Of a stretch of DNA of 63,483 nt, positions 29,966 to 63,016 are shown piece by piece. The DNA is from a virus (Duplodnaviria > Caudoviricetes): positions 1-63,483 of IMG/VR virus record IMGVR_UViG_3300034013_000310. One strand, given 5' to 3'. The notes under the pieces were generated by a model. That model saw only the letters and a program-made list of their open reading frames with translations. It searched no databases and was not told the DNA's origin. Every line of letters starts with the position of its first letter. Position 1 is the stretch's first letter. A program made the translations under genes and the position numbers.

Positions 29966-30204
29966 AATGTTTGAATGAATATTGGAGCGCCGACACCGAC
30001 ATACATCGCGTCTAGCTCGTTATAAAAATGCTCAACTGCCTCCTCGTGACTGAAGCCACTTTGTTGTAGTATCTCGATGCACTTGTCGATGGAGTAGACA
30101 AGATTGCTCCTGCTACTCACACCGATAATTGCCTGGTCGAATCCGGCCACTTTGTTGTAGCCTTCATTTGGGAATTGGTCTAATATTTTATTAAGAATGC
30201 TCAT
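29962..30204 (-). CDS. Conserved small phage protein
   Basis: GFD.AIIG, VYS..KCI..L, EEA.E.F, YVG..PIF motifs. Confidence 0.6.
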   Translation of the reverse strand: MSILNKILDQFPNEGYNKVAGFDQAIIGVSSRSNLVYSIDKCIEILQQSGFSHEEAVEHFYNELDAMYVGVGAPIFIQTL

Positions 30205-31798
30205 ACGTTCTCGCCATTGTAACGATAGCATTTGTGCTCAAGATTGTAACGGCCACACTTATCGCGTTTTGTAAAGCGCTTCGCGTCACCTTCACCGGAT
30301 CAATCACCCCCATCTTGATGAGGTCTCCCATCTCTCCGGTTTTTAGATTGTACCCATACCCCGGTGCAACACCCTCCGGATACACGTCGCTAGCCTTTAG
30401 GCCGGCATTGTCAAGTATTTGAAGGAACGGCTCCATAAGCGCATGCTTTACAATGTCGATAGCAAGGTTGTACTCATCCGATTTTGACTCGTCTTGTGAA
30501 AGTTTTAAAGCCTCCTCAAGCAAAGTCTTACCTGCACCCGGTAGAATACCCTCCTCAAGCGCGCTTCTAACAGCACACACCGCGTCATCCACACGGTCAT
30601 AAAGCTCTTTTTGCTCCAGGTCAGTATGCCCACCAACAAAAATTACCCCTATACCACCAGTAAGCGAGGCAATTCGCTCCAAAATGAAGTCCTTGTCCGC
30701 TTTTCTCACCGCATTTTTGTGTGCTACCCACAATTGCTCAACCCTCTCCTTCACCTCTGCCTCATCTGCTCGCGCGTCAGACTTGATAATGATGGTTTTG
30801 TCCTTGCTCACGATGACTTTTGCCGCGTGTCCAAGGTCTCCGAAGTTGATAAGGCTCAAATCGTCACCGGTCTTTTCACTGAAGTAGGTCGCACCCACGC
30901 TAATAGCGATGTCATGCATCAGCTCGTGCTGCTTATACCCGAATCCCGGTGGCGCAACAGCGCAAACCTTTAAGTTTCCTTTTACAGCATTGGCCGCCAA
31001 GGTATTTACAACGTTAGTATTGCATGGAGAAATGATTAAAAGCTTTTTACCCTCACTGATAATTGGCTTTAACACGCTCTCAATTTGCAAAATATTTGCT
31101 ATCTCCACATCAGCTACCAACACCATCACATCGTCCATAACACATTCGTCCTTTTTTTGGTCGTTGATGAACATAGAGCTTAAATACCCTCTGTCAAATT
31201 TTAAACCTTGAGTGGTCTCAGCATACGTCTCGTCGGTCTGACTCTTCTCCACCGTTACGATACCATTTTTACCAACGTCTTTGTATACCTCAGCAATGAT
31301 TCGCCCGGTCTCTCTGTCGTTGTTTGCCGAGATTGTCGCCACGTCGCTTATCATCGAAGCAGTAACTTTTTTGGCGCGCTTTTTTAAGTTGTCCACCACC
31401 TTGTCGCTTATCTCCACCATGCTGCGAAGCACCTCGGTACGATTAGTCTCAGGAGTGATCTTGTCAGCACCACGCAATACCAATGCCTCAGTGAGTACAA
31501 TGGCCGTAGTAGTACCATCACCGGCACTTGTCGCCGTTCTATCGGCAGCCTCTTTCATCATTCGAACCGCAAGGTTCTCAGACGCGTCAAAAAGATTGAT
31601 TGATTTTGCTACAGTAACACCATCTTTGGTCACTGTGATACCATGAGTATGGTCAGGAGATTCAATAAGAACTGTGTTTCCGGAAGGCCCAAGAGTGCTC
31701 TTTACAGCTTTGGATAGCTTTACGACACCACTTACAAGTTTTTTCCTTCCATCTTCCCCGAAATGTAAATCTTTTGGAGAGTAACCATTTTCTATCAT
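30191..31798 (-). CDS. groEL: Chaperonin GroEL
   Basis: TLGP.G, VTKDGVTVA, AGDGTTTA, EEGILPG.G, GVIDP.KV.R.AL motifs; no GGM tail; start placed at MIENG because a -7 box overlaps the longer start. Confidence 0.95.
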   Translation of the reverse strand: MIENGYSPKDLHFGEDGRKKLVSGVVKLSKAVKSTLGPSGNTVLIESPDHTHGITVTKDGVTVAKSINLFDASENLAVRMMKEAADRTATSAGDGTTTAIVLTEALVLRGADKITPETNRTEVLRSMVEISDKVVDNLKKRAKKVTASMISDVATISANNDRETGRIIAEVYKDVGKNGIVTVEKSQTDETYAETTQGLKFDRGYLSSMFINDQKKDECVMDDVMVLVADVEIANILQIESVLKPIISEGKKLLIISPCNTNVVNTLAANAVKGNLKVCAVAPPGFGYKQHELMHDIAISVGATYFSEKTGDDLSLINFGDLGHAAKVIVSKDKTIIIKSDARADEAEVKERVEQLWVAHKNAVRKADKDFILERIASLTGGIGVIFVGGHTDLEQKELYDRVDDAVCAVRSALEEGILPGAGKTLLEEALKLSQDESKSDEYNLAIDIVKHALMEPFLQILDNAGLKASDVYPEGVAPGYGYNLKTGEMGDLIKMGVIDPVKVTRSALQNAISVAVTILSTNAIVTMARTYEHS

Positions 31799-31822
31799 TG
31801 GATTGAATTTAAAATTGATAGG

Positions 31823-31830
31823 CAAATATA
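31823..31830 (-). promoter_or_regulatory. TAnnTTTG -7 box for groEL
   Basis: caaatata on the plus strand; equivalent boxes at 3128, 11321, 14770, 24414 and 32331 (minus) and 44094, 53915 (plus), each just upstream of a gene start. Confidence 0.65.
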
Positions 31831-40509: not shown

Positions 40510-40968
40510 ATGATAAACGAAATTGAAGTAGTTGATTACGAAATAGTGTCAGCTAAGAATAGCGGCTGCTTCCCTAAAGGTCATGAGCCATGGAACAAAG
40601 GACTAAAAGGTATTCATCTTAGTCCTTCTTCAGAATTTAAGAAGGGTGAAAAGGTGATGGATAAGCACCCGAGTTGGAAAGGTGGTGTTCAAATATTCAC
40701 TAAAGACTGCGCTTATGTATCCGTAGCACCAAACAAAAGAGTGAGAAGGCCTCGTAAAGTGTACGAGGAAACTGTTGGTCCGATACCTCCTGGGTGGGTT
40801 TTATTTCATATAGATGGAGATAGGTTTAACGATGACATTGACAACTTGATAGCCATACCAAGAGCTATACTTGTAGAGGTGAATGCGGGCCGGATAGGCT
40901 CGAACTATCATCAACTGAAAATCGCGGTAGAACTTTTTAATCAAAAACAAAATGGACTTACGAATTGA
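40510..40968 (+). CDS. HNH endonuclease with NUMOD-type repeats
   Basis: FPKGHEPWNKG, EFKKG, HPSWKGG and HIDGD..ND.IDNL motifs. Confidence 0.75.
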   Translation: MINEIEVVDYEIVSAKNSGCFPKGHEPWNKGLKGIHLSPSSEFKKGEKVMDKHPSWKGGVQIFTKDCAYVSVAPNKRVRRPRKVYEETVGPIPPGWVLFHIDGDRFNDDIDNLIAIPRAILVEVNAGRIGSNYHQLKIAVELFNQKQNGLTN

Positions 40969-41290
40969 ACACATTTTTAGAGAAGAAATGAAAGGAGATA
41001 CATCTTTTCAAGAAAAAGAAACTGGGTTAAGTTTGCTTTTCGGAACAAACAAATACTCTAAACAAGAAATGAGAGAAACTTGGGATAGAGGTATTAAACA
41101 CGGAATAGAAATAGGATTGCGAAAAGCAAGTTTAGAAGGGCAAAGGATTGAACTTAATCACAATACTCCAGAAGGAAAACATAAGGAGTTTCTTGAAAAG
41201 TTTTATCAATTGGCTGATGAATATAAATGTGCTGTTCAATATCATCCCGAAGTTGGAATGGTTGTAGTGGCTCGTCAAAATGGCTTATAA
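40952..41290 (+). CDS. Hypothetical protein; its stop codon forms the TAAC of attC-like site 1
   Basis: Ends ...ggcttaTAA c. Confidence 0.6.
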   Translation: MDLRIEHIFREEMKGDTSFQEKETGLSLLFGTNKYSKQEMRETWDRGIKHGIEIGLRKASLEGQRIELNHNTPEGKHKEFLEKFYQLADEYKCAVQYHPEVGMVVVARQNGL

Positions 41291-41417
41291 CGGTTCGCAG
41301 CCTTGCGTTAGTGCGGGCTTAAAATGCACTACACTTTGTTAAACCAAAAATGCTTAATTATGGCACAAAAGAAGAATAAACCACAAACCCCCGCATTACG
41401 CAAGACTGCTGTTAGTG
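41285..41417 (+). repeat. attC-like site 1
   Basis: TAAC-ggttc-gcagccttgcg[t]tagtgcggg ... cccgcattacgcaagactgc-t-GTTA. Confidence 0.75.
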
Positions 41418-41683
41418 GCAGTTTTATGTGCGCTCATGGTGCGGAAAACAAATGCAATGAACAATGCTTTACTTGTTCAGAAGATGAAAAGTGTGATGTA
41501 AAATACAGCTACAAAGCTACTATGATACATTATTTTCAATTTACAGAATGGATTGCTGAAAGGTACAATTATATTGGTGGTGAGTGGTGTTGCTGGTGTG
41601 CGAAACAATATGATATTAAAGATACAGAACGCTACAAGAATACTGGTGAATTATGGGCGTATTGGTGGGAAAATTGCCACTAA
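41360..41683 (+). CDS. Cassette 1 gene (Cys/Trp-rich hypothetical); start lies in the loop of site 1
   Basis: MAQKKNKPQTPALRKTAVSGS reads through the right arm; the stop codon is the TAAC of site 2. Confidence 0.6.
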   Translation: MAQKKNKPQTPALRKTAVSGSFMCAHGAENKCNEQCFTCSEDEKCDVKYSYKATMIHYFQFTEWIAERYNYIGGEWCCWCAKQYDIKDTERYKNTGELWAYWWENCH

Positions 41684-41732
41684 CGTTTTGCAAATAGGCA
41701 ATCGTTTTAATGTTGCTTATTTGCTGTTATGT
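41678..41732 (+). repeat. attC-like site 2 (minimal, 55 nt)
   Basis: TAAC-gtttt-gcaaataggcaa[t]cgtt ... aatgttgcttatttgc-t-GTTA. Confidence 0.75.
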
Positions 41733-41752
41733 TTAGTTAAAAATTACGGATT

Positions 41753-42103
41753 ATGAAGGTAATAATTGCAGGTGGAAGAACATTTAATGATTACGATTTG
41801 CTTTGCCAAAATTGTGACAAGACATTGAGTTTGCAAAATGAAATTGAAATAGTAAGCGGAACTGCAAATGGAGCAGATAAACTTGGCGAGAAGTATGCAA
41901 ACGAAAAGGGATACCCAATAAAGCAATTCCCTGCCGATTGGGATAAATATGGTAAAAGTGCAGGATACAAACGGAATGAAGAAATGGCTAAATACGCAGA
42001 TGCTTTAATTGCTTTTTGGGATGGTAAAAGTAAAGGCACTAAGCACATGATTGATTTGGCAAAGCGTTATGAATTAAAGGTGAAGGTAGTAATTTTTAAT
42101 TGA
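41753..42103 (+). CDS. Cassette 2 gene: SLOG/YspA-like (DUF2493) protein
   Basis: MKVIIAGGR.F.DY, IVSG.A.GAD.LG, FPADW..YGK.AG..RN..M, AFWDG.SKGT.HM. Confidence 0.85.
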   Translation: MKVIIAGGRTFNDYDLLCQNCDKTLSLQNEIEIVSGTANGADKLGEKYANEKGYPIKQFPADWDKYGKSAGYKRNEEMAKYADALIAFWDGKSKGTKHMIDLAKRYELKVKVVIFN

Positions 42104-42238
42104 AGCTAACGTTTCGCAACTACACGTCTGTTGCGTAAAAACACAAAACCATCTTTCAGTTTAACACGGAATTGAAAGGTACAAAACAATCATTAAATTA
42201 ATCACAAATGTAGCAATAGCGTGTAATTGCTGTTATAA
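42104..42238 (+). repeat. attC-like site 3
   Basis: TAAC-gtttc-gcaactacacg[t]ctgttgc ... gcaatagcgtgtaattgc-t-GTTA. Confidence 0.75.
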
Positions 42239-42249
42239 GCTGTTTTTTT

Positions 42250-42507
42250 ATGGACACTAAATTAAAATTCGTAAGATTAAAACAATACAATGAAGTTATA
42301 ATATTTCCTTGTGTTATAGAACATTCAAAGTTTAAACACCTAAACCCTATTTCTGCTGGATTTTGTTATGTTTTAGCTGATGAGCAAAAAGTTTCTTGTT
42401 TTGGAGAAAGTTACTCTTTAGGTTTGAAAGCAGACCAAACTCAAGACACAATAGAAGCTACTAAACAACTTTTCGGAATAGACGCTATGTTAAACGTTAT
42501 GCGTTAA
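42250..42507 (+). CDS. Cassette 3 gene (IIFP..IEH, PISAGFC, CFGES.SL)
   Basis: Single ORF filling the cassette. Confidence 0.65.
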   Translation: MDTKLKFVRLKQYNEVIIFPCVIEHSKFKHLNPISAGFCYVLADEQKVSCFGESYSLGLKADQTQDTIEATKQLFGIDAMLNVMR

Positions 42508-42513
42508 AATAGC

Positions 42514-42647
42514 TTATAACGCCCGCAGCTTGCTCGTCGTTGCGTTATTCAAACACTAAAACAATAAAAAATTAATAACTTTTAAATTTAAAAATTATGT
42601 TTACAAAAAATAAATTACTTAGCAATGCGTGCAAACTGCTGTTAGTA
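42514..42647 (+). repeat. attC-like site 4
   Basis: TAAC-gccc-gcagcttgctcg[t]cgttgc ... gcaatgcgtgcaaactgc-t-GTTA. Confidence 0.75.
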
Positions 42648-43046
42648 GTGATTGCTTTAACTTCTTGCGAACCTATGGTAGATAAGAATTTTAAAAGCTC
42701 AAAATTAGAATTAAGGCAATTAGTTCAAGAAACTGAAACAAAAAAATCGGCTTATGCATCTTATTTTTTAATTGCTGGAAGTTACGGACAAAGCGAAGAA
42801 AAAAATACAACTGTTAAAGTTTTTGCTAAAGTAGAAAACCGTTTCAGACTAATTGAAATGCCGATTGATGAAGTTAGAATAGCTATTGACAATAAATTAA
42901 AATCTCCTAATATTGAAATAGAATACATAAATGAAAAAAAGTATGGAGACGAAGAATTAGTTAGTAAAAAATGGGTTGACAAAGTTTATATCATAAATTG
43001 CCCTGAACAATTTCTTCCTGAAAAACTTTTACCGATTGGGCTTTAG
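42597..43046 (+). CDS. Cassette 4 gene: lipoprotein; start lies in the loop of site 4
   Basis: MFTKNKLLSNACKLLLVVIALTS-C signal peptide II with lipobox. Confidence 0.7.
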   Translation: MFTKNKLLSNACKLLLVVIALTSCEPMVDKNFKSSKLELRQLVQETETKKSAYASYFLIAGSYGQSEEKNTTVKVFAKVENRFRLIEMPIDEVRIAIDNKLKSPNIEIEYINEKKYGDEELVSKKWVDKVYIINCPEQFLPEKLLPIGL

Positions 43047-43064
43047 AATCACTACTAACTTGCA
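43047..43064 (+). repeat. Terminal half-site 5
   Basis: aatcactacTAAC is the exact reverse complement of the start of cassette 4; no matching right arm seen. Confidence 0.6.
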
Positions 43065-43113
43065 GATAGTCGCTATTTTATCACGCATACCTACCCAAAA
43101 TCAATAATAGATT

Positions 43114-43419
43114 ATGAAAGATTATTTTGAATTAGAATGCCTAATAGAGAATTGGGCCAAAGAGAAAGGAATACTTGACAAAGCCACTCCTTTGAAACAA
43201 GCTATGAAGACTCAAGAAGAAGTGACTGAGCTTTGTAATGCTATAATTGACGACAATAGAGACGAAATAAAAGACGCTATTGGAGACATAGTAGTAACAC
43301 TTATTATTCAAGCTAAAATGCAAGGAATGACGATAGAGGAATGTCTCAACGCAGCATACGATGTTATTAGTAAACGCACCGGCCAAATGATAAATGGACA
43401 ATTCGTTAAAGACCAATGA
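43114..43419 (+). CDS. MazG-like nucleotide pyrophosphohydrolase
   Basis: Q.MK..EEV.EL, DAIGD..VTL, CL..AY..I..R.G.MING.FVK. Confidence 0.85.
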   Translation: MKDYFELECLIENWAKEKGILDKATPLKQAMKTQEEVTELCNAIIDDNRDEIKDAIGDIVVTLIIQAKMQGMTIEECLNAAYDVISKRTGQMINGQFVKDQ

Positions 43420-49709: not shown

Positions 49710-50045
49710 ATGACAAAAGAACAAAGAATCCACGTTGGTATGGTGAATTCATTCAATATTATAACCGGTAAAGCTAATATCGATCAGATTATCGACGCTG
49801 GCATCGCTGTATTCGCGCATGAACCAAACTCAGATATAGGAAAGAAGAACATTGAGTTTATGATTTACTATTTCAGAGAGCAGGAAATGTACGAGGAATG
49901 TTCAGAGCTTTCTAAATTCGTAGAAGAAACCTTCAACGAAGATGGAACTTACAAAGAGAATTTCTGCGAATGCGAGAGGCCAAAGATTGTAGAGTACACT
50001 AAAAGAGTAAAGTGTGGAACATGCAACATGAGGATAAAAGTATAA
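49710..50045 (+). CDS. Hypothetical protein with a C-terminal Zn-ribbon
   Basis: CEC...CGTC. Confidence 0.55.
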   Translation: MTKEQRIHVGMVNSFNIITGKANIDQIIDAGIAVFAHEPNSDIGKKNIEFMIYYFREQEMYEECSELSKFVEETFNEDGTYKENFCECERPKIVEYTKRVKCGTCNMRIKV

Positions 50046-50839
50046 TAGAGATAACCCCTGGGTTTACTTACAAGAATATGTGGGATTACTGCGAGGCCTT
50101 AAAAGAAGTCATCGATATAGAGATAGAAGTTCAAGAAGGTCGCGGAAGAAACATCATCACAAAGCAGGTTTTTAAGCACAATATTCCGGATGAGGTTAGG
50201 CAGAGAATTTACAATAGCTGCGAGTATTATAAAGGACTTTTTAAACAATCTATGAATTCAGAATCAGGTATCCAATTTAGAGATTATCAAACAAGGATAA
50301 TCTATGAAGGCTCTAAGATTATTCAGCAGCATGGCTTCGTGTACTTGGCTATGGAGGTTAGAACCGGAAAGACACTGACTAGCCTTGGAATCGCATCAAA
50401 GATTTCAAGCCACAAGGTTTTGTTTTTAACAAAAAAGAAGGCTATTAGTAGTATTCAGAGGGATTACGACCTACTTAACCCTATCTATCATTTAACAGTT
50501 ACTAACTACGAAAGTTTACACAAGGTAGAAGGATCTGATTGGGATTTGATAATTTGTGATGAAGCGCATTCCTGCTTTTTAGAAGATACTTTAATAGATG
50601 GTATAAAAATAAAAGACATAAAGTTGGGGAGTTTCCAAAAAAGTTTTAACTTTGCAAAAGGAATTTATGAATATAAAAAAGTATTAAATGTATTTAAAAA
50701 TCCTTTAACTGAAAATTTAATAAAAATAAAATGTAATGGAAAAGAAATTGTATGCACCGAAAGCCACAAAATTTTTACAAAAAGAGGATGGGTTAAAGCA
50801 GGAGAGCTGTTATCCACAGATGAACTGCAAGTTTTGTGA
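50012..50839 (+). CDS. SF2 (SNF2-like) helicase N-extein fused to split-intein N-half
   Basis: FRDYQ, MEVRTGKT Walker A, ICDEAHS Walker B, then CFLEDTLI (block A) and CTESHKIF...GW.KA.EL (block B), then stop. Confidence 0.9.
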   Translation: MWNMQHEDKSIIEITPGFTYKNMWDYCEALKEVIDIEIEVQEGRGRNIITKQVFKHNIPDEVRQRIYNSCEYYKGLFKQSMNSESGIQFRDYQTRIIYEGSKIIQQHGFVYLAMEVRTGKTLTSLGIASKISSHKVLFLTKKKAISSIQRDYDLLNPIYHLTVTNYESLHKVEGSDWDLIICDEAHSCFLEDTLIDGIKIKDIKLGSFQKSFNFAKGIYEYKKVLNVFKNPLTENLIKIKCNGKEIVCTESHKIFTKRGWVKAGELLSTDELQVL

Positions 50840-51571
50840 TAAGCCTTTAACTGATTCTCAGATTTACGAATACTTAAGAGGAAAAACTAAAGGATGTTGT
50901 TCAAGATTTTGCGGTAGTCTATATTTTTATTATGAAAAAGCTATTAGCTTACCTAAGTATAAAATAAAAAATGGAAGAAAAAGAAAATTATTCAGTGGAG
51001 TCTGTACAGTTTGTAGTTCAGAATTTGAATCTACAGTAAAAGTTCAGAAAACTTGTAGTTCAAAATGTGCAGGAAATTTATCTTCTATAAGAATGACTGA
51101 AAAAAATCCAATGCTTAATAAAGAAGTGAGAGATAAGGTTTCAGAAACATTAAAAAGAATTGGTCATAAACCAATTAAGCAAGGAGGGAATGGAAGGGGA
51201 AATACAACGGAACAGCAGTTTCTATATAATGAATTGTTAAAAATTAATAAGTCATTTGTTTGTGAGTACATATTTAAAACAAAAGATTTCAATGAAGAAA
51301 AAATATATCCAAATCATTACAAAATAGATATAGCTTCAGAAGAATTAATGATAGCAATAGAAGTAGATGGAAGAAGTCATAACAGTTTAAAAGTAAAAGA
51401 ATGCGACAAGAAAAAAACAGACCTATTAATTTCGCAAGGGTGGAAAGTATTGAGGTTATCAAACTCACAGATACAGAAAGAATTAGAGAGCTGTGTCCAA
51501 GCGGTTATGTTTATGATTTAGAAATAGAAGATAATCATAACTACTTAGCAGAAAATATATTAGTTCATAAC
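50573..51571 (+). mobile_element. Split intein + homing endonuclease insertion
   Basis: IntN 50573-50836 (88 aa), endonuclease ORF, IntC 51401-51571 (57 aa); AT-richer than its flanks. Confidence 0.85.
50820..51521 (+). CDS. Vsr/DUF559-like homing endonuclease with Cys-rich DNA-binding repeats
   Basis: CKFC, CSRFC, CTVC, CSSKC, NPM; YKIDIA, AIEVDG.SH, D..K...L...GWKVLR. Confidence 0.85.
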   Translation: MNCKFCDKPLTDSQIYEYLRGKTKGCCSRFCGSLYFYYEKAISLPKYKIKNGRKRKLFSGVCTVCSSEFESTVKVQKTCSSKCAGNLSSIRMTEKNPMLNKEVRDKVSETLKRIGHKPIKQGGNGRGNTTEQQFLYNELLKINKSFVCEYIFKTKDFNEEKIYPNHYKIDIASEELMIAIEVDGRSHNSLKVKECDKKKTDLLISQGWKVLRLSNSQIQKELESCVQAVMFMI

Positions 51572-52492
51572 TGCGGCGCATTCCCTAAGCCAAGTAATAG
51601 AGCTGTTCAAATAAAAGACTTGATAGCCAAGACTAAGGCTAAAGTGATATTGCTTTCAGGAACGCCTACTCCGGAGTCATACTCTCAAATGTATCACCAG
51701 GTTTATGGTATACCGAACAGCCCTTTCCGAGAGTTTAAAACTTTCTACAGATTTTGTGATAAATTTGTAAATGTAAAAACCAAGATAATCAACAGTTTAA
51801 AAATGAACGACTACTCTGATGGTATGTATACCATACTTGAAGAGATGGCTCCATTCACAATAAACTATACTCAAGAAGAGGCTGGCTTTATTGCTAAAAC
51901 CACTGAGGAGATTATGGAGGTTCCGCTGAAAGATTCAACCTACAAGCTTATATCTAAACTGAAGAGAGATTTAGTTGTTGAAGGCAAAGAAGAAGTGATA
52001 CTTGCTGATACACCGGTAAAGTTGATGAGTAAAGTTCATCAGCTTTTTTCCGGAACCATAAAGTTCGAGAGTGGCAAATCAATGGTATTGGATACTTCAA
52101 AGGCTGAGTTTATAAAAGAGACTTTCATGGGTTGTCAGATAGGGATATTCTACAAGTTCAAAGAAGAGCTAGAAGCATTGAAGCAGGTATTTGAAGATGA
52201 ACTTACTACAGATTTGGATGAGTTCAACTCGACTTATAAGAATATAGCCTTACAGATAGTGTCGGGCCGGGAGGGTATATCATTGAAGAAGGCTGACTAC
52301 TTAGTCTATTATAACATTGACTTTAGCGCAACAAGTTATTGGCAGTCTAAAGATAGGATGACCACCAAAGATAGACTCGAGAATCAAATATTTTGGATTT
52401 TCTCCAAAGGAGGTATCGAGCATGAGATTTACAAAGCAGTAACAAAAAAGAAAGACTATACGCTTTCTCACTTTAAAAAAGATTTTTTATGA
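51401..52492 (+). CDS. Split-intein C-half fused to helicase C-extein
   Basis: VYDLEIEDNHNYLAENILVHN|C (blocks F/G, +1 Cys), then GAFPKP, LSGTP, SGREGISL, Q..DR helicase motifs. Confidence 0.9.
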   Translation: MRQEKNRPINFARVESIEVIKLTDTERIRELCPSGYVYDLEIEDNHNYLAENILVHNCGAFPKPSNRAVQIKDLIAKTKAKVILLSGTPTPESYSQMYHQVYGIPNSPFREFKTFYRFCDKFVNVKTKIINSLKMNDYSDGMYTILEEMAPFTINYTQEEAGFIAKTTEEIMEVPLKDSTYKLISKLKRDLVVEGKEEVILADTPVKLMSKVHQLFSGTIKFESGKSMVLDTSKAEFIKETFMGCQIGIFYKFKEELEALKQVFEDELTTDLDEFNSTYKNIALQIVSGREGISLKKADYLVYYNIDFSATSYWQSKDRMTTKDRLENQIFWIFSKGGIEHEIYKAVTKKKDYTLSHFKKDFL

Positions 52493-52710
52493 CACTAAAA
52501 GACAAGTTTGCAAAAGCCACAAATAAAGGCAGTTATTATGTTATCCCGATTATAGAGGATGCTGAGATAATAGAGAAGATTGCTGATGAGTTCGCTATCG
52601 TGTTTGCTAAGTGGCTTAGAGAGAATGATATCCCTGAGAATGCGGAGAAGTATTTTGGTTATTCAGATTCAGATATGTTAGAAGAATTTAAAAAAGAAAA
52701 AGGATTATGA
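52489..52710 (+). CDS. Small protein, MTL.EKF paralogue 2
   Basis: ADEFAI.FA.WL...EKGL. Confidence 0.55.
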   Translation: MTLKDKFAKATNKGSYYVIPIIEDAEIIEKIADEFAIVFAKWLRENDIPENAEKYFGYSDSDMLEEFKKEKGL

Positions 52711-55375: not shown

Positions 55376-58300
55376 TTAGTCGGCTCCAAATTTGTATCTC
55401 TTTCTTTTAATCAAAGGAATTCTTTTAATTTTTCCATCTCCAGAGTCATAATTAAATTCCTCTTCCTCAGCCTTAGTCTCTTTATCTTTGATAATCTTTT
55501 GTACTTTCTTTTCATCTTTCGTTAAGTCATCCCACTCAGATCCCGGCCCAAAATTCTTTTTCCATAACTTTGGATTGTATTTCTTTAAATCAGTTACATT
55601 ATCGTATGTAACATCTTTTTCCTCGTCATAAAGAAGCTCTTTCTTCATTTCATTTAACTTACTCTTCTCTTCTTTGTAATCTTCAGGATTTTCCATCTTT
55701 TCAATCAATTTAGAAGCGGCTTCTTTAGTTTGTTCAGAATAATTTCCTTCTACAACTTCTTGTAAGTCTTCTATCTTAGACTGCATCTTCTGTTTTTCCT
55801 CACTTGAAATTCCTTTCTTTTTAGCTACTTTTACAGAGTTCCTAGTAAATGAAGCTACTTCAGATGGTAGCAATCCAAAACCAGTTAATATTGATGGCCC
55901 TATTAATGCTCCTAATTTTTCTCTTTTTTCTTCAGGAATCTCCCTTACATTGTCGTATTGGTCTTTATATGTTCCAGTAGCATACATATCTACTAACTCT
56001 GCAACTTCTTTTGCTCTTGTTCCGGTTATACCAAACATACCTAATTGTTGAAAGAAATCTTGACCTTTAGGGCTATATAATGAAACCTTGTCTTTTTCAG
56101 ACAACCCCATCATATCTTGTGCAAATTCTAAGCTATTTGCTGAACCCCATTGTACGAGTTTATCTGCAACCGGTATAGGAGACAACACGTCTGTAACTGC
56201 TCCTGTTACATTACCCTTAACAATTGCGTCTCTTCTTTTCTTTCTCTCTTCTTCATCATCTTCTCCCATGTAAGATAATGCCATTGAGGAAATGCCTAAT
56301 CCTATTCCGGCAGCTATAACCTTAAATACCGTGGCTTCAATAAGGAATCCTGAAAGTGATCTTATAGCAATCTTCCTATCTTCTTTTGTTGCAGAGTTCC
56401 AATAACCTAATGTTGTTAGGTCTGCCGCCAATCTTGAAGATTGGTTCATTCTAAAGCTAGCAAGAGGCATAAATATTTTAGTCAGTACTTGAGTTGACTT
56501 CTCTTTTGATGAGAATAACTTTCCGGCAAGGTCAGGATCAGATATATTTTGCTGTCTATCTACCATTCTTTGGGCATAGTTAGCAGCTTCTTTATTAACC
56601 TCATGGTCTTTGTAATTTATATCTTTATCATCTATTCCTTGTTCTCTAAGAGATTGTTCGTAATATGATTTCCAGGAAGCTCTAGCTATCGCAACATCAG
56701 GTTTAGCTAAAAACACATCCAAATAAGCCTTGTTTATTTTTTCAATATACTTTAATAGTTTTTCTCCTTTTGAACTTGCTGCTTCGTCTATAAGCTTGTT
56801 TATGGAATCAATTTGGGCTTGAGACTCAACACCTCTGTTTGATATAGCGTAACCAGCTTTGTTTAACCATGCATTAAAGTCAGCATCAAATGGTGCTTTA
56901 ACATCTAAGTATCCACCGGTATTCAATAATGTGTTGAACATAACCGGAATGACTTGCTTTATTGGCTGTAAAGGGCCGGCAAGAACCTGAGAGGCTCCAA
57001 ATGATGATATTCTATTTAAGGCATTAATAGCTTTTGATAATTCATCATCAGAGAAAGGACTTTTCTTTCTAGAATTTTGAACATAGGATTTTAATCTATT
57101 TCTAAATATTTGAGAATCATCTCCAAATATTTTCTCAAAACTCTTAGAGTCTATAAACGACTGAACTTGTCTGACAGATGCAGCGGTTTCAATATCCACT
57201 AATGCGTCATACATGGAGTTTGAATTATTCTTATCAAAAGACAAGTCAATATAAGCTGTAACATTACCTCTTCTGTTCGAAGGAAGTGTTGAAGATGGTT
57301 TTTTAGACATTAATACTCCTGTTTCTTTTTTATAAAGAACACCATCTGTGTTGTTTATAAATGCAGATTCCGAGTTTTCTAAATCCACATCACCTCTATC
57401 ATATTTTATCCTAGTGTATTTATCAGGAGTATAGTTTAAATCTCTTGACAATTCTTTGTTGTAAACATTTTTAGCTACATCAGATAGCTTGTCAAATTTA
57501 CTATCCCATTGGTCTACCCAAAATTTTACTGCTGAATTATTAACGGCATCTGTCTTAGATTGAACCTCTTGATAATTTTTAGAGTCTTTTAATATTTTGT
57601 CATAAATCTCTCTATAAACCTTAGCCTTTTCTTGTTCGGTTTTATTCCCTTCAGATAAAGCGTCTATAGATTGTTCTATAAGTCCTTTTCTTCTATTAAA
57701 TTCCTCTTGCATTTCTTGTTGAGTACCTACAATATTTCTTGTCATAAACGCATTCATTCCTCTCTCTATACTATTGAATAGAGTGTTGAATGCCTGACCA
57801 TTTGCTGTCTTTTTATAAAACTCATTAACATAATCATTGACTATGTTTGTTGCTTGTCTTTGTGCAAATGATTTTCTGTTTATGAGTTCTGAAATACCCA
57901 TTTTTTCCATCACATATCCGGCAGCATTGAATCCTTTGAATTTCTTTTCAAAAAGAATAGGAAGCGAAGTTGTTTGTTCTCCTAAAAATTTAGCAAAAGG
58001 TTTAGACCATAGTTTTCTAAGGTCTGTTTTTACTATTTTTTTATTAGACTCTACCTCTCTTGCATTTTGCTCTCCTTCGTATTCAGCTATTACCGCCTCC
58101 ATCTTTGCTGTAGATTTATTCACTAGGAAATTAACCAATGAATCAATAGCCGCTACAGAGTCTTTAATGTCCATTTTATTAGTATCCATCTTCATGAACT
58201 TCTGTATAATGGCTTTTTGCTCTCTTGTATACTCAGTATCTTCTCCGGTAAATAAATCCACTCCATCACTTATAGACTTTTTAATCATAGCCGAATAAGT

Positions 58301-61300
58301 ATCGAAAGCCTTTTTTACAGCGGCTCTAATAATTCCTTCATTATATTTGGTAACGCTAGGACTTTTCCCTTCTCCATAAACACTCAACAACGTATCTATA
58401 TCTTCAGCGCTAAATTGAGAAGCATCTACGTCAAGCAAATCTTGTATCTCCTTAATAGATTCTTCTCTCAATTTTACCTCTTGAGATTTTAATGTCTTAG
58501 CTATGTAATCTGATACCTCGTCTATGTTTATGGTATCGGCCACTGTAAAGTTTTTCACTTTAGCAGCAGTTCCTTTTATAGCGTTTTTTATTTCGGAAGC
58601 AATCTTGTTGTACTCAAAGATATTATCAACCATTGATGGATCTATCTTAGAGAACTCGGATCCAACGGTTCTTAGGTCGACGTTTTTATCTTTGTTTCTT
58701 GATAGCTTCTTTATTATTTTTCTAAGCTTATTGGCATTTCTAATGTTATCAGCATAGTCTGCATTTTCAAAAACCTTTGTCATGTAGTCTACAAACTTGT
58801 CTACTGATTTTTGACTAAACACATTTACTTTAGAAAAAGCCCTAATAACGTTTGCTGCTTGCTTGGCTGTAATACTTCCGGTTGCAGCTAACTCTTTTAC
58901 ATCTTTAGATAATTGTTCAGCTATTCTTCTAGAGGCAGAGATGGCATCTTTAGCACCTTTCGCAGTATCCTTTATCTGTTTGATAAGAGCGTCCTTCTCT
59001 GTCATTGTAATCTTCTTGATGTCTTTTATCTTGCCAAAAAGTTTACCTACTGATGGGGCAGACTTTTCTTTTAAACCAAATCTTTTGCGTACTTCTCTAA
59101 CTAAAGCCTCTCTCTGTACATCTGTGGCATCTTCATAGACTTTTGAGCCCATAACATAACTCATAACGTTATCGGCTATTTTATCGGCTGACACCCTTCT
59201 TTTTTTAGACTTCTCGATAATGCCTTCTATTTCACCCACCATTCTATTGTATCCAGGTAAATCAAACTCAGATACTCCCTCGGCTTTGTTTTCGTTGATT
59301 TTAGACACGATATTCATCGCATCGATAATTTGTTCAGGAGTTACTTTTTGTTCGGCAGAAACGCGGTTAATTGCCTCCTGAAGTGTTATACCGGCATTCA
59401 CCAAAGCCTTCAATGCTTTAATTACAGCTTTAGCCGTGGTAACGGTCATAACTCTAGTAACATCATTTAGCTCATTCGGATCAATATCCAATGCAGAGTC
59501 AAGCCTATCTAAAAAGTCAGCGACTCTTTGTAGGTTCGTCTTGTCGGTTGTGTCTAATTCAAGAAGGTCTGCTACGGCAGGAGCCTCAATAACAGGAGCC
59601 GGCTCACTAACGATATCGAACCCTTCAGGAGCAGGTGGTAAACCTAATTGCTCGGCTATATCTTGACCTAATAATACATCTTGTGGTTCAGCTACTTGTT
59701 CTGTGATGATAGTAAAAGTGGCATTTCTTCCATCTTCTTCCACCTTTGTTAGTAGTCCTTTTTCTACTGCCTTATTGTGCATTCTAACAGCGCCTTCTCC
59801 TGCTGACCGGGTATTTATTGTGGTTACTCCTTTATCTTTTAAATAAGCGATTAGTTTCTCAAACATTCTGCTTCCTTTTCCTTTACCTACTTCGTTTGCA
59901 GAAATTCCATCTATTCTAAATTCCGTTGGAGATGTCATAACTCCGGCCATTATTCCATCTTCAGTTCTAAATTCATATAGCTGACCATCTTCTACTTCTG
60001 TTATTGTAGGATTTCCTAAGTATTCAGTAACATTGGTATCGATGATAGTTTGAGGTTGAGTTGACTCAATTGTAGGAGTTACTACTTCTTTTGCGGATTC
60101 ATAGTCTGATATTTTTCTATTAAAATTATCAATAGCATCAGAATAAACAACATCAAATTCAGTAGTACCATATTCGTCTACAATACGTTGCTTATAATCA
60201 GGATCTTCGTTAATTCTTTCCTCGTGACTTTCTTTTACGTCTTTTAATTCTTGCTTGAAAAATTCAACAGGATTTTCTTTTAGAAGCTTAACCTTATTTT
60301 TATATCGATCTATCTCTTCTTTAATCCATTTCTTTTCATTTGCTGCGTCAGAAAGCCAAGAACTTAATACTCCTTTACTTTCTTCTTTTTCTAAATCTTT
60401 TTCTAAATCTTGAATAAGTCCTTCGTATTGATTAATTCTTGCATCATACTCTTGTCTATGTTGCTCCGGAATTATTACTTCTTCTTTTGTGCCCTCTTCG
60501 GTAACGACTTCAGGTTTTGGTCCGGATACTCTTTCCTCCACCGTTTCGCTAACTCCGGTTTCTGGCTGAACAGGAACCGCTGCTGTGCTTTGCTCTTGAA
60601 TGGCATTTGTTTCGCTTAATTTAGTTAATGAATCGTTTATCTCTGTGATTCTGTTTTTCTGCTTAACCACTAAGGCAGCGTCTTTTCCGTTCACATAAGT
60701 CTCTAAATCTCTTTTTTCTTTTAAGAGATTCATTGCTTCTTTCTTTTGCTCTGTAGTCAATCCATCAGGTAACTGTCTGAATAAACCAACAGAATTTCTG
60801 TAGTTGTTTAATTGTTCTTTTCCTTGGGCTACGGTTATGATTCCTTGAGCTATTTGCTGTTTTAGATTGGCGATGTATGCGCTTTGCATTTTATCGTCAT
60901 TAGCCATATTCTCAAAAGTGGTGAAAGTTATATCATCCATTTTAAGGAATCCTTTTTCTGAATAAGCAGTGCTAACTCCTGTTGGTACTCCAAGAATAAA
61001 CCCACCAACAGCTTCTTGCGCGCCGGCAACAAGAACATTCTCTAAAAGATCCATTTTAGAGTCAGGAGTATTGAACATATTCTTTTCCTTTATCTTGTTA
61101 TACACCGATTTGAAGGTGCTTTCAGATAACTCTTGAGCCGCACCGGTCTCAAACTCTGCAATACCGGCGGCGGTTACAGTTAATAGTCCTTTAGCTAATT
61201 TTGACTCAACCTCGTTTTCAACCAACTCTCTAAAAGTCCTAGCACTTGTGTTTGCTCCGGCTCTTCCTAAAACAGACATGGTTATTGAGTTTATAACCCC

Positions 61301-63016
61301 TTTACTGGCTAATACGTTTCTTAAACCATAAGCTTCAAGAACTGCACTTGTTATACCAATTGGTAAAGTCACTGCTAGCTTTTCATTCTCCGATATGTTT
61401 GCGAAGTCTGGATCCTTTTCCATTTCCTCCATTACTCCATCAGAAACCTGGGCATACATCTGCGCGGTTCTTTGCGCCCATCCAGCCGGCCCCGAACCGC
61501 CTATCATTGCAGGAAGAGATTCAGACAGCCCAAGTATAGCGCCTCCCCAAAAACTTTCTTTTTTTAGGTCTGACCATTGTTTAGTGGTTTCAGGATCTCC
61601 AAATATTTCTTCAGCACCTATCCTTACATAAGGAAGCACCCTTCCTTTTATGTCTTTTTTAATAACATCGTCTACCTCGTCTTCCCATTGATCTAATTGA
61701 TCCTCTGTAAGAGTTTTCTTCCATTCTTCAACACTTTGCTTTTCCGATGGTGGTGTAACTCCTATTTTTTTAGCTATATCAATCGATACATTTTTTAAGT
61801 CTTTTGGACTCATACCATATCCAGCCGGCATAATTTCTGTTTGAACATCAGATATTAAGCTAGTTATACCTGAAGTCATTTTTCCTATACCTCTATTAAA
61901 TGAATCCCAAATACCTCCAGACCATCCACCCTTTTTGGCTTCTGATATTCCGTATTTAGCCACTGCTGCATTTAGTCTTTGGCCTCGTGCTTTTATTTTT
62001 TCCTCCTCAGATAATAGTGATTTCATCTCTGACATCAAGGCTAATCTTTTTTTCTCTATTTCTTCGGTGTTTCCAAACTCTTCAACCTCTTTCTCTAAAG
62101 ATTCTGTCTTAGCCAAGAACTGTTTCTGTCTTTGATTCAAATCATTAACTTCTTTTGTTATTGATTTTATTGAGTTGTCAACATCTTTTTGTGAGTTGAA
62201 CTTTTTATCCTGCTCTCTTAAAGTGTTCTCCAACACAAAAAGCCCCTTGGCCGGGGCATTTGTTTTTATAAAGGATTTTAATGTTTCTGCTTGCTTTGAA
62301 GATTTTGAACTTAGGAAGTTGTCGAGAGAAACCTCGATGGTTTTTCCATTTGGAGCAGTTACTTTCATGTAGTCCCCCATGGCCCCGGTCTCTTCAAATT
62401 TAAAACCTAAATCACCAAATTGATATTCCATTTCAGGAACAACATACTCTTCTGTTTTATTAATTAGAGATGTGTTTATTGAAGCCAACCTATCGTTTAG
62501 ATATTGGCTCTCAGCAGGTTTTGGTTTTATTTTTAACTGTCTGTCAAATACGTCTGAGTATTTTTTCTTTTCAGATTCAAGAACTTTCTTTTCCTCAGAT
62601 ATTCTTGTCAGCGTTTTCTTTGCTTCTTCTTGTTTTGCTTTAGAGAATACAACTTTTCCGGACATGTCTTTTATATCCGTATTTGATATGTTCTCTAAAT
62701 CTTCTTGAGTTAGCTTTTTTTGAGGTCTAACTGTAGGAGGTGTACCCAAAGAACCATCCGCCGAAGACGATCCCATAGCTTTTGCTGGAGCTGGCTGAGA
62801 CTGTTCTGAGACCGATAAATCTTTTTTTTTTACAGGAGTAGAAACCAATGCTGTAAAGTCATTGAAGTCTCCAAGAGTTTCGCTTCCTATGCTGTTATAG
62901 AAATCCTTTTGGTAAGTTTTATCTGTAGTTATAAGGACTTGAAAGTCTTCGAATGAACCGAATTTATCTTGTCCTCCTAATTGATTGTATAAATCTTGGA
63001 TATATTTTTTGTCCAT
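55376..63016 (-). CDS. Giant internal virion/ejection (polyvalent-type) protein, 2546 aa
   Basis: Follows the 624-aa gene circularly; helical with hydrophobic segments, an N-terminal LY..L...G.F.DF repeat and an embedded GNAT-like segment. Confidence 0.65.
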   Translation of the reverse strand: MDKKYIQDLYNQLGGQDKFGSFEDFQVLITTDKTYQKDFYNSIGSETLGDFNDFTALVSTPVKKKDLSVSEQSQPAPAKAMGSSSADGSLGTPPTVRPQKKLTQEDLENISNTDIKDMSGKVVFSKAKQEEAKKTLTRISEEKKVLESEKKKYSDVFDRQLKIKPKPAESQYLNDRLASINTSLINKTEEYVVPEMEYQFGDLGFKFEETGAMGDYMKVTAPNGKTIEVSLDNFLSSKSSKQAETLKSFIKTNAPAKGLFVLENTLREQDKKFNSQKDVDNSIKSITKEVNDLNQRQKQFLAKTESLEKEVEEFGNTEEIEKKRLALMSEMKSLLSEEEKIKARGQRLNAAVAKYGISEAKKGGWSGGIWDSFNRGIGKMTSGITSLISDVQTEIMPAGYGMSPKDLKNVSIDIAKKIGVTPPSEKQSVEEWKKTLTEDQLDQWEDEVDDVIKKDIKGRVLPYVRIGAEEIFGDPETTKQWSDLKKESFWGGAILGLSESLPAMIGGSGPAGWAQRTAQMYAQVSDGVMEEMEKDPDFANISENEKLAVTLPIGITSAVLEAYGLRNVLASKGVINSITMSVLGRAGANTSARTFRELVENEVESKLAKGLLTVTAAGIAEFETGAAQELSESTFKSVYNKIKEKNMFNTPDSKMDLLENVLVAGAQEAVGGFILGVPTGVSTAYSEKGFLKMDDITFTTFENMANDDKMQSAYIANLKQQIAQGIITVAQGKEQLNNYRNSVGLFRQLPDGLTTEQKKEAMNLLKEKRDLETYVNGKDAALVVKQKNRITEINDSLTKLSETNAIQEQSTAAVPVQPETGVSETVEERVSGPKPEVVTEEGTKEEVIIPEQHRQEYDARINQYEGLIQDLEKDLEKEESKGVLSSWLSDAANEKKWIKEEIDRYKNKVKLLKENPVEFFKQELKDVKESHEERINEDPDYKQRIVDEYGTTEFDVVYSDAIDNFNRKISDYESAKEVVTPTIESTQPQTIIDTNVTEYLGNPTITEVEDGQLYEFRTEDGIMAGVMTSPTEFRIDGISANEVGKGKGSRMFEKLIAYLKDKGVTTINTRSAGEGAVRMHNKAVEKGLLTKVEEDGRNATFTIITEQVAEPQDVLLGQDIAEQLGLPPAPEGFDIVSEPAPVIEAPAVADLLELDTTDKTNLQRVADFLDRLDSALDIDPNELNDVTRVMTVTTAKAVIKALKALVNAGITLQEAINRVSAEQKVTPEQIIDAMNIVSKINENKAEGVSEFDLPGYNRMVGEIEGIIEKSKKRRVSADKIADNVMSYVMGSKVYEDATDVQREALVREVRKRFGLKEKSAPSVGKLFGKIKDIKKITMTEKDALIKQIKDTAKGAKDAISASRRIAEQLSKDVKELAATGSITAKQAANVIRAFSKVNVFSQKSVDKFVDYMTKVFENADYADNIRNANKLRKIIKKLSRNKDKNVDLRTVGSEFSKIDPSMVDNIFEYNKIASEIKNAIKGTAAKVKNFTVADTINIDEVSDYIAKTLKSQEVKLREESIKEIQDLLDVDASQFSAEDIDTLLSVYGEGKSPSVTKYNEGIIRAAVKKAFDTYSAMIKKSISDGVDLFTGEDTEYTREQKAIIQKFMKMDTNKMDIKDSVAAIDSLVNFLVNKSTAKMEAVIAEYEGEQNAREVESNKKIVKTDLRKLWSKPFAKFLGEQTTSLPILFEKKFKGFNAAGYVMEKMGISELINRKSFAQRQATNIVNDYVNEFYKKTANGQAFNTLFNSIERGMNAFMTRNIVGTQQEMQEEFNRRKGLIEQSIDALSEGNKTEQEKAKVYREIYDKILKDSKNYQEVQSKTDAVNNSAVKFWVDQWDSKFDKLSDVAKNVYNKELSRDLNYTPDKYTRIKYDRGDVDLENSESAFINNTDGVLYKKETGVLMSKKPSSTLPSNRRGNVTAYIDLSFDKNNSNSMYDALVDIETAASVRQVQSFIDSKSFEKIFGDDSQIFRNRLKSYVQNSRKKSPFSDDELSKAINALNRISSFGASQVLAGPLQPIKQVIPVMFNTLLNTGGYLDVKAPFDADFNAWLNKAGYAISNRGVESQAQIDSINKLIDEAASSKGEKLLKYIEKINKAYLDVFLAKPDVAIARASWKSYYEQSLREQGIDDKDINYKDHEVNKEAANYAQRMVDRQQNISDPDLAGKLFSSKEKSTQVLTKIFMPLASFRMNQSSRLAADLTTLGYWNSATKEDRKIAIRSLSGFLIEATVFKVIAAGIGLGISSMALSYMGEDDEEERKKRRDAIVKGNVTGAVTDVLSPIPVADKLVQWGSANSLEFAQDMMGLSEKDKVSLYSPKGQDFFQQLGMFGITGTRAKEVAELVDMYATGTYKDQYDNVREIPEEKREKLGALIGPSILTGFGLLPSEVASFTRNSVKVAKKKGISSEEKQKMQSKIEDLQEVVEGNYSEQTKEAASKLIEKMENPEDYKEEKSKLNEMKKELLYDEEKDVTYDNVTDLKKYNPKLWKKNFGPGSEWDDLTKDEKKVQKIIKDKETKAEEEEFNYDSGDGKIKRIPLIKRKRYKFGAD

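Follow-up and report, generated by a model that had tools for sequence, protein, structure and literature searches.

A probable integron-like cassette array in a phage genome, with structured sites that may double as translation starts

Introduction

Small accessory genes that are bracketed by repeated structured or recombinase-binding sites, and that reshuffle between genomes, are known from the promoter–stem-loop mobile regulatory cassettes of T4-type phages and from the XerCD-flanked pdif modules of Acinetobacter plasmids. To our knowledge, neither has variable palindromes bounded by AAC and GTT, gene-specific complementary ends or N-termini encoded by the sites themselves. Here we describe an array of four small, co-oriented accessory genes separated by hairpin-forming sites, S1 to S4, in a linear viral contig of 63,483 bp (IMG/VR record IMGVR_UViG_3300034013_000310, analysed in its entirety and hereafter called the window), and compare it with integrons and with the integron-like clusters already reported from phages.

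The literature that we found on this phage system consists of a single study, Qi et al. 2023 (PMC9892861); neither a phage array linked to a recombinase nor the regular encoding of N-termini by sites turned up in our searches. Qi et al. report that virulent phages, Polaribacter phage P12002L included, contain clusters of attC sites lacking an integrase (CALINs), and also report HattCI/Infernal matches in P12002L and recombination of one of its attC sites by IntI1; the main text of that paper makes no mention of start codons. For class 1 integrons, PMC8876359 describes ORF-11, ORF-17 and ORF-18 in attI1, short open reading frames (ORFs) in attC and fused cassettes.

The phage sites share several properties with these systems. 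Like integron attC sites and CALINs, they are palindromes that are invariant only at the basal AAC and GTT and whose structure is kept by covariation. Like integron cassettes, the genes are single, co-oriented and mostly promoterless with cassette-specific complementary ends, and the window phage has no integrase; as for the phages of PMC9892861, the same short sites occur in P12002L. Unlike attC, however, the phage site is linked to the downstream and not to the upstream gene, and it is the coding strand that folds better, whereas by attC convention it is the bottom strand, opposite the ORF. The spacers of the phage site are 5 nt versus 1 nt, where the attC spacer is roughly symmetric. The recombinase of related arrays also differs from IntI, being ∼266–277 aa long, without the IntI-specific insertion, and located 3′ of the array in the same orientation, whereas IntI is encoded upstream of the first cassette. 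With class 1 integrons the phage sites appear to have in common that recombination sites carry translation signals for a downstream cassette lacking its own, with occasional N-terminal fusions arising from cassette context (PMC8876359). The short ORFs of class 1 integrons are described there as acting mainly by translational coupling and ending before the cassette gene, however, and the fusions as rare and arising from attC loss, whereas the long phage sites mostly have an in-frame site ATG that would make the arm belong to the mature reading frame. Judged on sequence patterns, it is probable that this is an integron-like phage cassette system in which the sites double as translation starts, with an Xer/IntI-like recombinase as the likely catalyst.

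Results

The sites of the window are imperfect palindromes of a common form, namely TAACG, a 4-nt spacer, a 5′ arm, a loop, a 3′ arm, a T and GTTA, and all lie on the plus strand. S1 (41288–41414; long class, 127 nt) has its 5′ arm at 41297–41317, an A-rich loop containing ATG 41360 and its 3′ arm at 41391–41409, followed by the T and by GTTA at 41411–41414. S2 (41681–41729; short class, 49 nt) carries the invariant loop of its family, TCGTTTTAATG, the ATG of which is unused. In S3 (42107–42235; long class, 129 nt) the loop ATG is followed by an immediate stop. The loop of S4 (42517–42644; long class, 128 nt) holds ATG 42597, and its 3′ arm and GTTA (42641–42644) are read as SNACKLL and, past the junction, L. 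The right end of the array is a terminal half-site (43047–43073, plus strand) made up of an R″ box, AATCACTACTAAC (43047–43059), and a 5′-arm-like GCAGATAGTCGC (43062–43073), with no 3′ arm. The arms of the sites were recovered by folding, and those of S1 and S2 were also seen by a repeat finder. The stop codons of two ORFs, at 41288–41290 and 41681–41683, are the TAA of TAAC, as the initial annotation of this DNA had noted, and the same holds for the upstream stop at 57 of 142 sites of the wider family.

S1 to S4 are more than chance. The motif TGCTGTTAK occurs seven times in the window against 1.06 expected, a count reached in none of 100 shuffles, and four of the seven copies are site ends; TAACGNNNNGCA occurs five times against 1.13 expected, three of these being site starts. 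Scanning for structure (TAAC...GTTA plus a stem score) returned all four sites and two weak matches on the plus strand, and found no site on the minus strand of the window or in the reversed window. The weak matches, at 7725–7829 and 52440–52661, were rejected since neither begins with TAACG; the former sits within a long minus-strand ORF and the latter covers ordinary coding sequence. An exact copy of the loop motif was found in the window only in S2, and Rfam (E-value mode, 40800–43300) gave no family match, just two at chance level. The S1 homologue of the related locus L001 shows compensatory changes in its arms. Four sites lie within 1.4 kb of a genome without a recombinase. A CALIN has at least two close sites and no integron integrase nearby; whether the array is one would depend on its sites counting as attC, and two attC features are absent from them.

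The initial annotation had placed an in-frame ATG for each of two cassette genes inside a site loop, and both placements hold. ATG 41360 in the S1 loop is in frame through the 3′ arm and reads MAQKKNKPQTPALRKTAV followed, across the GTTA, by SGS, while ATG 42597 in the S4 loop reads MFTKNKLLSNACKLL followed by LVVIALTSC; the distance from ATG to junction is 52 nt in S1 and 45 nt in S4. Read in this way, the cassette 1 ORF (41360..41683, plus strand) encodes 107 aa with a Cys-rich N-terminal part and no family, and the cassette 4 ORF (42597..43046, plus strand) a predicted lipoprotein of 149 aa with the lipobox LTSC (Cys24). Usable in-frame loop ATGs are confined to these two of the four window sites. 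The S3 loop ATG stands directly before a stop, so S3 supplies no start, and cassette 3 (42250..42507, plus strand; 85 aa, weak PHROG 3988 match) begins after the junction, as does cassette 2 (41753..42103, plus strand; 116 aa, YspA/SLOG family) after that of S2. An internal ATG of cassette 1 just past the S1 junction, also remarked upon earlier, is present at 41426.

Start contexts were scored with a matrix trained on 47 long ORFs of the window phage (training mean 5.5). ATG 41360 scored 5.8 (96th percentile), which is the level of true starts, and ATG 42597 scored 1.8 (86th percentile), with ATG 41324 at −7.7 (22nd percentile) and the internal ATG 41426 at −15.0 (1st percentile). Of the long sites in the family 130 are distinct, and 85 of these have a junction at which an ORF of 50 codons or more is open; 73 of the 85 (86%) contain an in-frame ATG within the site, compared with 55 of 170 (32%) for the two other frames. 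The in-frame ATGs lie mostly 40–70 nt upstream of the junction. Loop ATGs of short sites are not starts, being open for at least 50 codons in only 2 of 108 cases, and at the ∼88-nt sites of three arrays that were inspected the starts come after the junction. The peptides encoded by the sites are not conserved; 50 sites have GTT as a codon and 29 have TTA, and identical arm letters are read either way. Two frames over the same letters suggest that the constraint is on the nucleic acid and that the peptide is a tolerated leader. In the window, the two in-frame loop ATGs are very probably real starts.

For cassette 4, a start at 42597 would mean that the site encodes the n-region of a lipoprotein signal peptide together with the beginning of its hydrophobic core, in line with the earlier proposal that these parts come from the site. 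The predicted signal, MFTKNKLLSNACKLLLVVIALTSC, shows what defines a bacterial lipoprotein signal peptide: a basic n-region and a hydrophobic core, followed by a lipobox whose final Cys is invariant. There is no usable start between the S4 junction and the lipobox Cys, and the loop ATG alone keeps the lipobox within a signal peptide. As a single query cassette 4 found no viral relatives, whereas an alignment query did. There are 64 homologues, of which 34 were aligned and 58 placed by an anchor. The lipobox Cys is invariant in 34 of the 34 aligned homologues. It lies at residue 23–28 in close homologues, the cassette forms, whereas 15 of the 58 anchored ones have it at residue 15–17, behind a short signal peptide of the ordinary kind; the upstream DNA of three distant relatives (L194, L195 and L199) contains no site. 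In the close homologues a shared block of the LALVLFTSC type follows at least eight different prefixes, so that the predicted pattern of similarity beginning abruptly at the GTT junction behind variable N-termini holds for the homologues of this cassette. A site homologous to S4 precedes the cassette 4 homologue in L201 and L204, and two other site types do so in L202 and L203; in the DNA of L201, L202 and L203, three site types are joined to the same cassette, with the sequences parting exactly at GTTA. For each of two methyltransferase-like cassettes (so judged from the N-terminal motif only), the long site in front differs between loci, and with it the N-terminus that the site encodes, in L020 versus L114 and in L032 versus L100; these cassettes have no ATG between the junction and the conserved N-terminal motif.

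Behind the GTTA of each site stand letters whose reverse complement precedes the next TAAC, so that each gene has its own inverted end repeats of ∼13 nt. In the window this is seen for three of the four cassettes, across 9–13 nt: the 5′ end of cassette 1, TTAGTGGCA, is the reverse complement of TGCCACTAA before S2, that of cassette 3, TTATAAGCT, is the reverse complement of AGCTTATAA before S4, and that of cassette 4, TTAGTAGTGATT, is the reverse complement of AATCACTACTAA at 43047–43058. Family-wide, complementarity between the first 3 nt behind GTTA and the last 3 nt ahead of the following TAAC is perfect in 119 of 171 intervals, compared with 21 of 262 when the two flanks of the same site are compared and 10 of 171 after shuffling. 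Cassette ends also covary among homologues, both between the window and L001 (cassette 1) and between the window and L201–L204 (cassette 4). By analogy with integron-type cassettes, such ends are the footprint expected of excision and insertion via a circular form. The gene upstream of the array (40952..41290, plus strand; 112 aa, no family), whose stop is the TAA of the S1 TAAC, ends in a repeat for which a left-end partner was looked for and none found; this gene may therefore be resident rather than a cassette. The match of a contig from another metagenome to the window stops at 41291 (X5 record 20).

We then compared which gene the site accompanies in pairs drawn from metagenomic contigs, which are not independent events. 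Pairs sharing only the downstream gene had the site in common in 14 of 15 short and 3 of 8 long cases (17 of 23 in total), and pairs sharing only the upstream gene in 1 of 1 short and 0 of 11 long cases (1 of 12 in total); unrelated pairs shared a site core in 23.6% of short and 0.24% of long cases. One upstream gene precedes four different sites, the sequences parting at TAAC. Moreover, the block comprising S2 and cassette 2 (41678/41681–42111) recurs in other metagenomes between unrelated flanks, in one with four differences (X4 record 17, X5 record 23), and that comprising S4 and cassette 4 (42517–43059) recurs between unrelated flanks in another metagenome with seven differences (X3 record 15). 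Both sets of copies break at TAAC on both sides. S1 and cassette 1 are common to L001 and the window, S3-like sites precede other sequences in other metagenomes, and a match over cassette 3 ends at 42521 (X3 record 14); gaps in contig cover in other runs, such as that over cassette 4 in X2, were given no weight. The linkage counts and the recurring blocks together indicate that the usual mobile unit would run from TAAC to TAAC, with the site first. The initial annotation, which assigned each site to the preceding cassette as in integrons, is not borne out in this respect, given the single upstream-linked pair and the recent copies that break at TAAC at either end. Its suggestion that the upstream neighbour sets the N-terminus of the product survives in part: swaps at GTTA are real but rarer, and since site and downstream gene usually move together, a gene would normally keep its N-terminus.

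With DNA parameters, the coding (top) strand formed the more stable fold in 124 of the 142 long sites and 68 of the 74 of mid size (192 of 216). The outer stems contain 509 G·T pairs on the coding strand compared with 80 on the other strand, and the pairs formed by cassette ends comprise 195 G·T against 29 A·C. In integrons the convention is the opposite one, and the preference seen here would also fit a structure in mRNA.

Of 22 site-bearing records that were searched, nine have a match to PF00589, and in nine out of nine the recombinase gene is the immediate 3′ neighbour of the array and shares its strand. In eight of them an A/T-rich motif of the TAKTATATATAA kind follows the TAAC of the last cassette, 30–60 nt before the recombinase start; L187 reads GGGTATATG at that position. 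The window has no better-than-chance match to this motif. The array-linked recombinase, 266–277 aa long, is a tyrosine recombinase of the Xer/IntI group that reaches 195 of the 220 bits set as cut-off for NF040815 and 161 of the 265 bits set for TIGR02249, and its best solved relatives are an XerC-like protein, XerA and IntI4. Where IntI4 (2a3v) has 65 residues it has 23, and hence is without the IntI insertion. Its relatives in isolated phages are only 30–34% identical.

A pattern based on S2 (TAACG, the loop TCGTTTTAATG and CTGTTA) found the short form in at least 119 viral contigs. Applied to one genome for each of 185,579 species it gave only 61 matches, mostly in small contigs of Bacteroidota genome bins, and the sites are thus largely confined to phage-type contigs. 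Short sites measure 48–49 nt and represent a small number of stem types, between which all changes are fully compensated. In an alignment of 15 short sites, hand-picked as distinct types, compensatory double changes are present in 11 of 12 stem pairs and 90% of cells are paired, against 70.6% after shuffling; the covariation score was reached by none of 500 shuffles, and slid registers came nowhere near it. TAAC and GTTA are invariant in all 15 while the stems covary, and all four window sites fit this description. The structure scanner, run over 1.08 Mb of loci, returned 453 sites with length peaks at 40–49 nt (118) and 120–129 nt (129) and a smaller group at 80–89 nt (50), S1, S3 and S4 belonging to the ∼125-nt class. 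A reversed-sequence control over all loci (104 matches) was not used because palindromes survive reversal and flank motifs mimic the cores, so that it is not independent. Methyltransferase-like genes are among the cargo of the system, as are genes for an RNA ligase, a YopX protein, a SLOG protein and lipoproteins. Sites that carry a probable start for the next gene are apparently a trait common to many related uncultured phages with integron-resembling arrays.

Two isolated phages carry sites of this kind. Polaribacter phage P12002L has sites of the family, one of them at L123:4899–4947, between its methyltransferase genes, and Polaribacter phage Leef_1 (L215, 5430–6960) has variant sites, with CCAAC/GTTGG cores, between small genes upstream of an annotated integrase. 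In Leef_1 a TAAC and a TATATA-like motif stand just before the integrase, which makes this phage a possible culturable model. The commonest short-site type had no match in isolated phages.

Several sites depart from the common types. In hybrid short sites (L098:123–171, L044, L085, L089 and L019) the two arms are of unlike stem types and do not pair with each other, which suggests crossovers within the invariant 11-nt loop. The loop of a ∼88-nt site (L186:6053–6141) holds an apparent promoter of the Bacteroidetes −33/−7 type, and some sites may carry promoters instead of start codons. Two loops of the long class (L093:3823–3950 and L072:2468–2600) contain G+C-rich stretches resembling the T-arm and acceptor ends of a tRNA, not an A-rich leader, and a motif of the TAGAATTACAAA kind is found in unrelated long-site loops, often twice per loop and sometimes in the translated part.

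The contig is rated 100% complete, is present in lake-water metagenomes and, gene by gene, has DNA similarity to Cellulophaga, Riemerella, Flavobacterium and other phages. Its minus strand carries long genes that are probably structural. Also on this strand are two very long ORFs at 55376–63016 (2546 aa) and 4447–9426 (1659 aa) and a phage GroEL-type chaperonin (30191–31825, minus strand; Cpn60_TCP1, E 4e-55). The plus strand from ∼34.6 to 55.4 kb is an early and replication block. Here, an HNH endonuclease gene (40510–40968, plus strand) overlaps the start of the gene preceding S1; P12002L has an HNH gene too, two genes past its final half-site, which is probably a coincidence. The first gene beyond the right end of the array encodes a MazG protein (43114–43419), and a primase-like protein, a PDDEXK-like protein and a Sak protein for annealing are also encoded around the array. 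Further along, a helicase gene (50012–52492, plus strand) is apparently split by an intein with overlapping frames, into an N-terminal ResIII part that also holds an intein splicing domain (50012–50839), a DUF559-type endonuclease (50736–51521) and an intein C-terminal part with Helicase_C (51401–52492).

Discussion

In the explanation that we favour, S1 to S4 would belong to a large family of structured sites, carried by phages, which mark off cassettes of one gene each, and the cassettes would move as site-then-gene units, from TAAC to TAAC, through a circular form. The ∼125-nt site would serve as the 5′ leader of its gene, its A-rich loop holding the ribosome entry region and the ATG, and the 3′ arm with the GTTA box would be translated as the first 15–20 residues; in the window, cassette 1 would start at 41360 and cassette 4 at 42597. 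An Xer-like enzyme would excise and insert cassettes at the AAC core, with the 3′-terminal motif playing the part of attI, and a rarer exchange at the GTT core would put a gene behind another site and so give it a new N-terminus. Since the window phage is without a recombinase, its array would either depend on an enzyme supplied in trans or be passive. It is from patterns in the DNA that we infer translation from the loop ATGs, recombination by the array-linked enzyme and the strand that is used. In its most general form the proposal would give Flavobacteria-type phages a mirror image of the integron, in which a 3′ Xer-like recombinase takes up cassettes in site-first order through a folded coding strand, the sites provide leader, ATG and N-terminus, and exchange at GTTA rewires N-termini, export signals included; this wider statement we offer tentatively, as a possibility falling a little short of an even chance.

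A number of observations weigh against the integron-like system just outlined. An in-frame ATG is absent from 12 of the 85 long sites with an open frame, and in 45 of 130 long sites no ORF is open at the junction at all. The ends of cassette 2 are not complementary. The linkage counts suffer from the non-independence of the contig pairs. Breakpoints occur at GTTA as well as at TAAC and, together with the hybrid short sites, indicate that exchange is not confined to one point. PF00589 has no match in the window, a record rated complete, nor in 13 of the 22 site-bearing records searched, and where a recombinase is encoded it could be an ordinary lysogeny integrase that merely lies beside an accessory-gene region. 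Finally, the better folding of the coding strand could mean that the hairpin works in mRNA and not in DNA.

This last point leads to the alternative that the hairpins are mRNA elements for processing, stability or translation control, with the start codon in an open loop, and that the genes are shuffled by general or short-homology recombination between co-infecting phages at TAACG and CTGTTA. The strong excess of G·T (G·U) pairs, the better folding of the transcribed-sense strand and start codons in A-rich loops are all as such elements would have them; a Sak single-strand annealing protein is encoded by the phage, as is a PDDEXK-like protein, short sites with arms of different types exist, and many complete site-bearing phages have no recombinase. 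Exchange at short homologies does not, however, predict gene ends that are complementary and covary, nor would it place a tyrosine recombinase after the TAAC of the last cassette in nine of nine cases, and no Rfam family matches the hairpins. Functions in mRNA and in recombination are moreover not exclusive, and we regard this alternative, taken as the whole explanation, as improbable.

Slightly less probable again is a canonical integron, in which each site would be the attC of the upstream cassette, crossover would occur only between G and TT and the N-terminus would be set by the upstream neighbour. The AAC/GTT cores, imperfect palindromes and cassette-specific end complementarity match such a system, sites of the family are present in P12002L, the phage in which Qi et al. 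2023 (PMC9892861) reported an attC cluster, and GTTA breakpoints with swapped N-termini do exist. What separates the phage arrays from it is the direction of linkage (upstream 0 of 11 long and 1 of 1 short; downstream 3 of 8 long and 14 of 15 short), the breakage of recent copies at TAAC on both sides, the single upstream gene found with four different sites, the better folding of the coding strand and a co-oriented recombinase that lies 3′ of the array and has no IntI insertion. The remaining alternative concerns translation alone, and holds that the loop ATGs are unused, that translation starts past the junction (at ATG 41426 for cassette 1) and that the open frames of the arms are incidental. 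ATG 41426 is in frame and conserved in L001, the site peptides are not conserved and the same 3′ arm is read in two frames, and an open ATG is found in 32% of the off-frame controls too. Against this, the in-frame proportion is 86%, ATG 41426 has the worst context of those scored, at the 1st percentile, only the loop ATG keeps the invariant lipobox of cassette 4 within a signal peptide, and the methyltransferase-like cassettes offer no ATG between the junction and their N-terminal motif. We consider unused loop ATGs very unlikely, and the least probable of the three alternatives.

The integron-like system that we propose is a directly testable case, with a recombinase of 266–277 aa, defined sites and defined predicted products. 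It points to a widespread, scarcely described system of cassette exchange in aquatic phages, one that standard integron finders, which rely on an ORF-then-attC order and on IntI, would see only in fragments. If the proposal is true, cassette recombination sites in these phages would be translated as a rule and not by accident, and mobility would be coupled to the N-termini of the products, export signals included.

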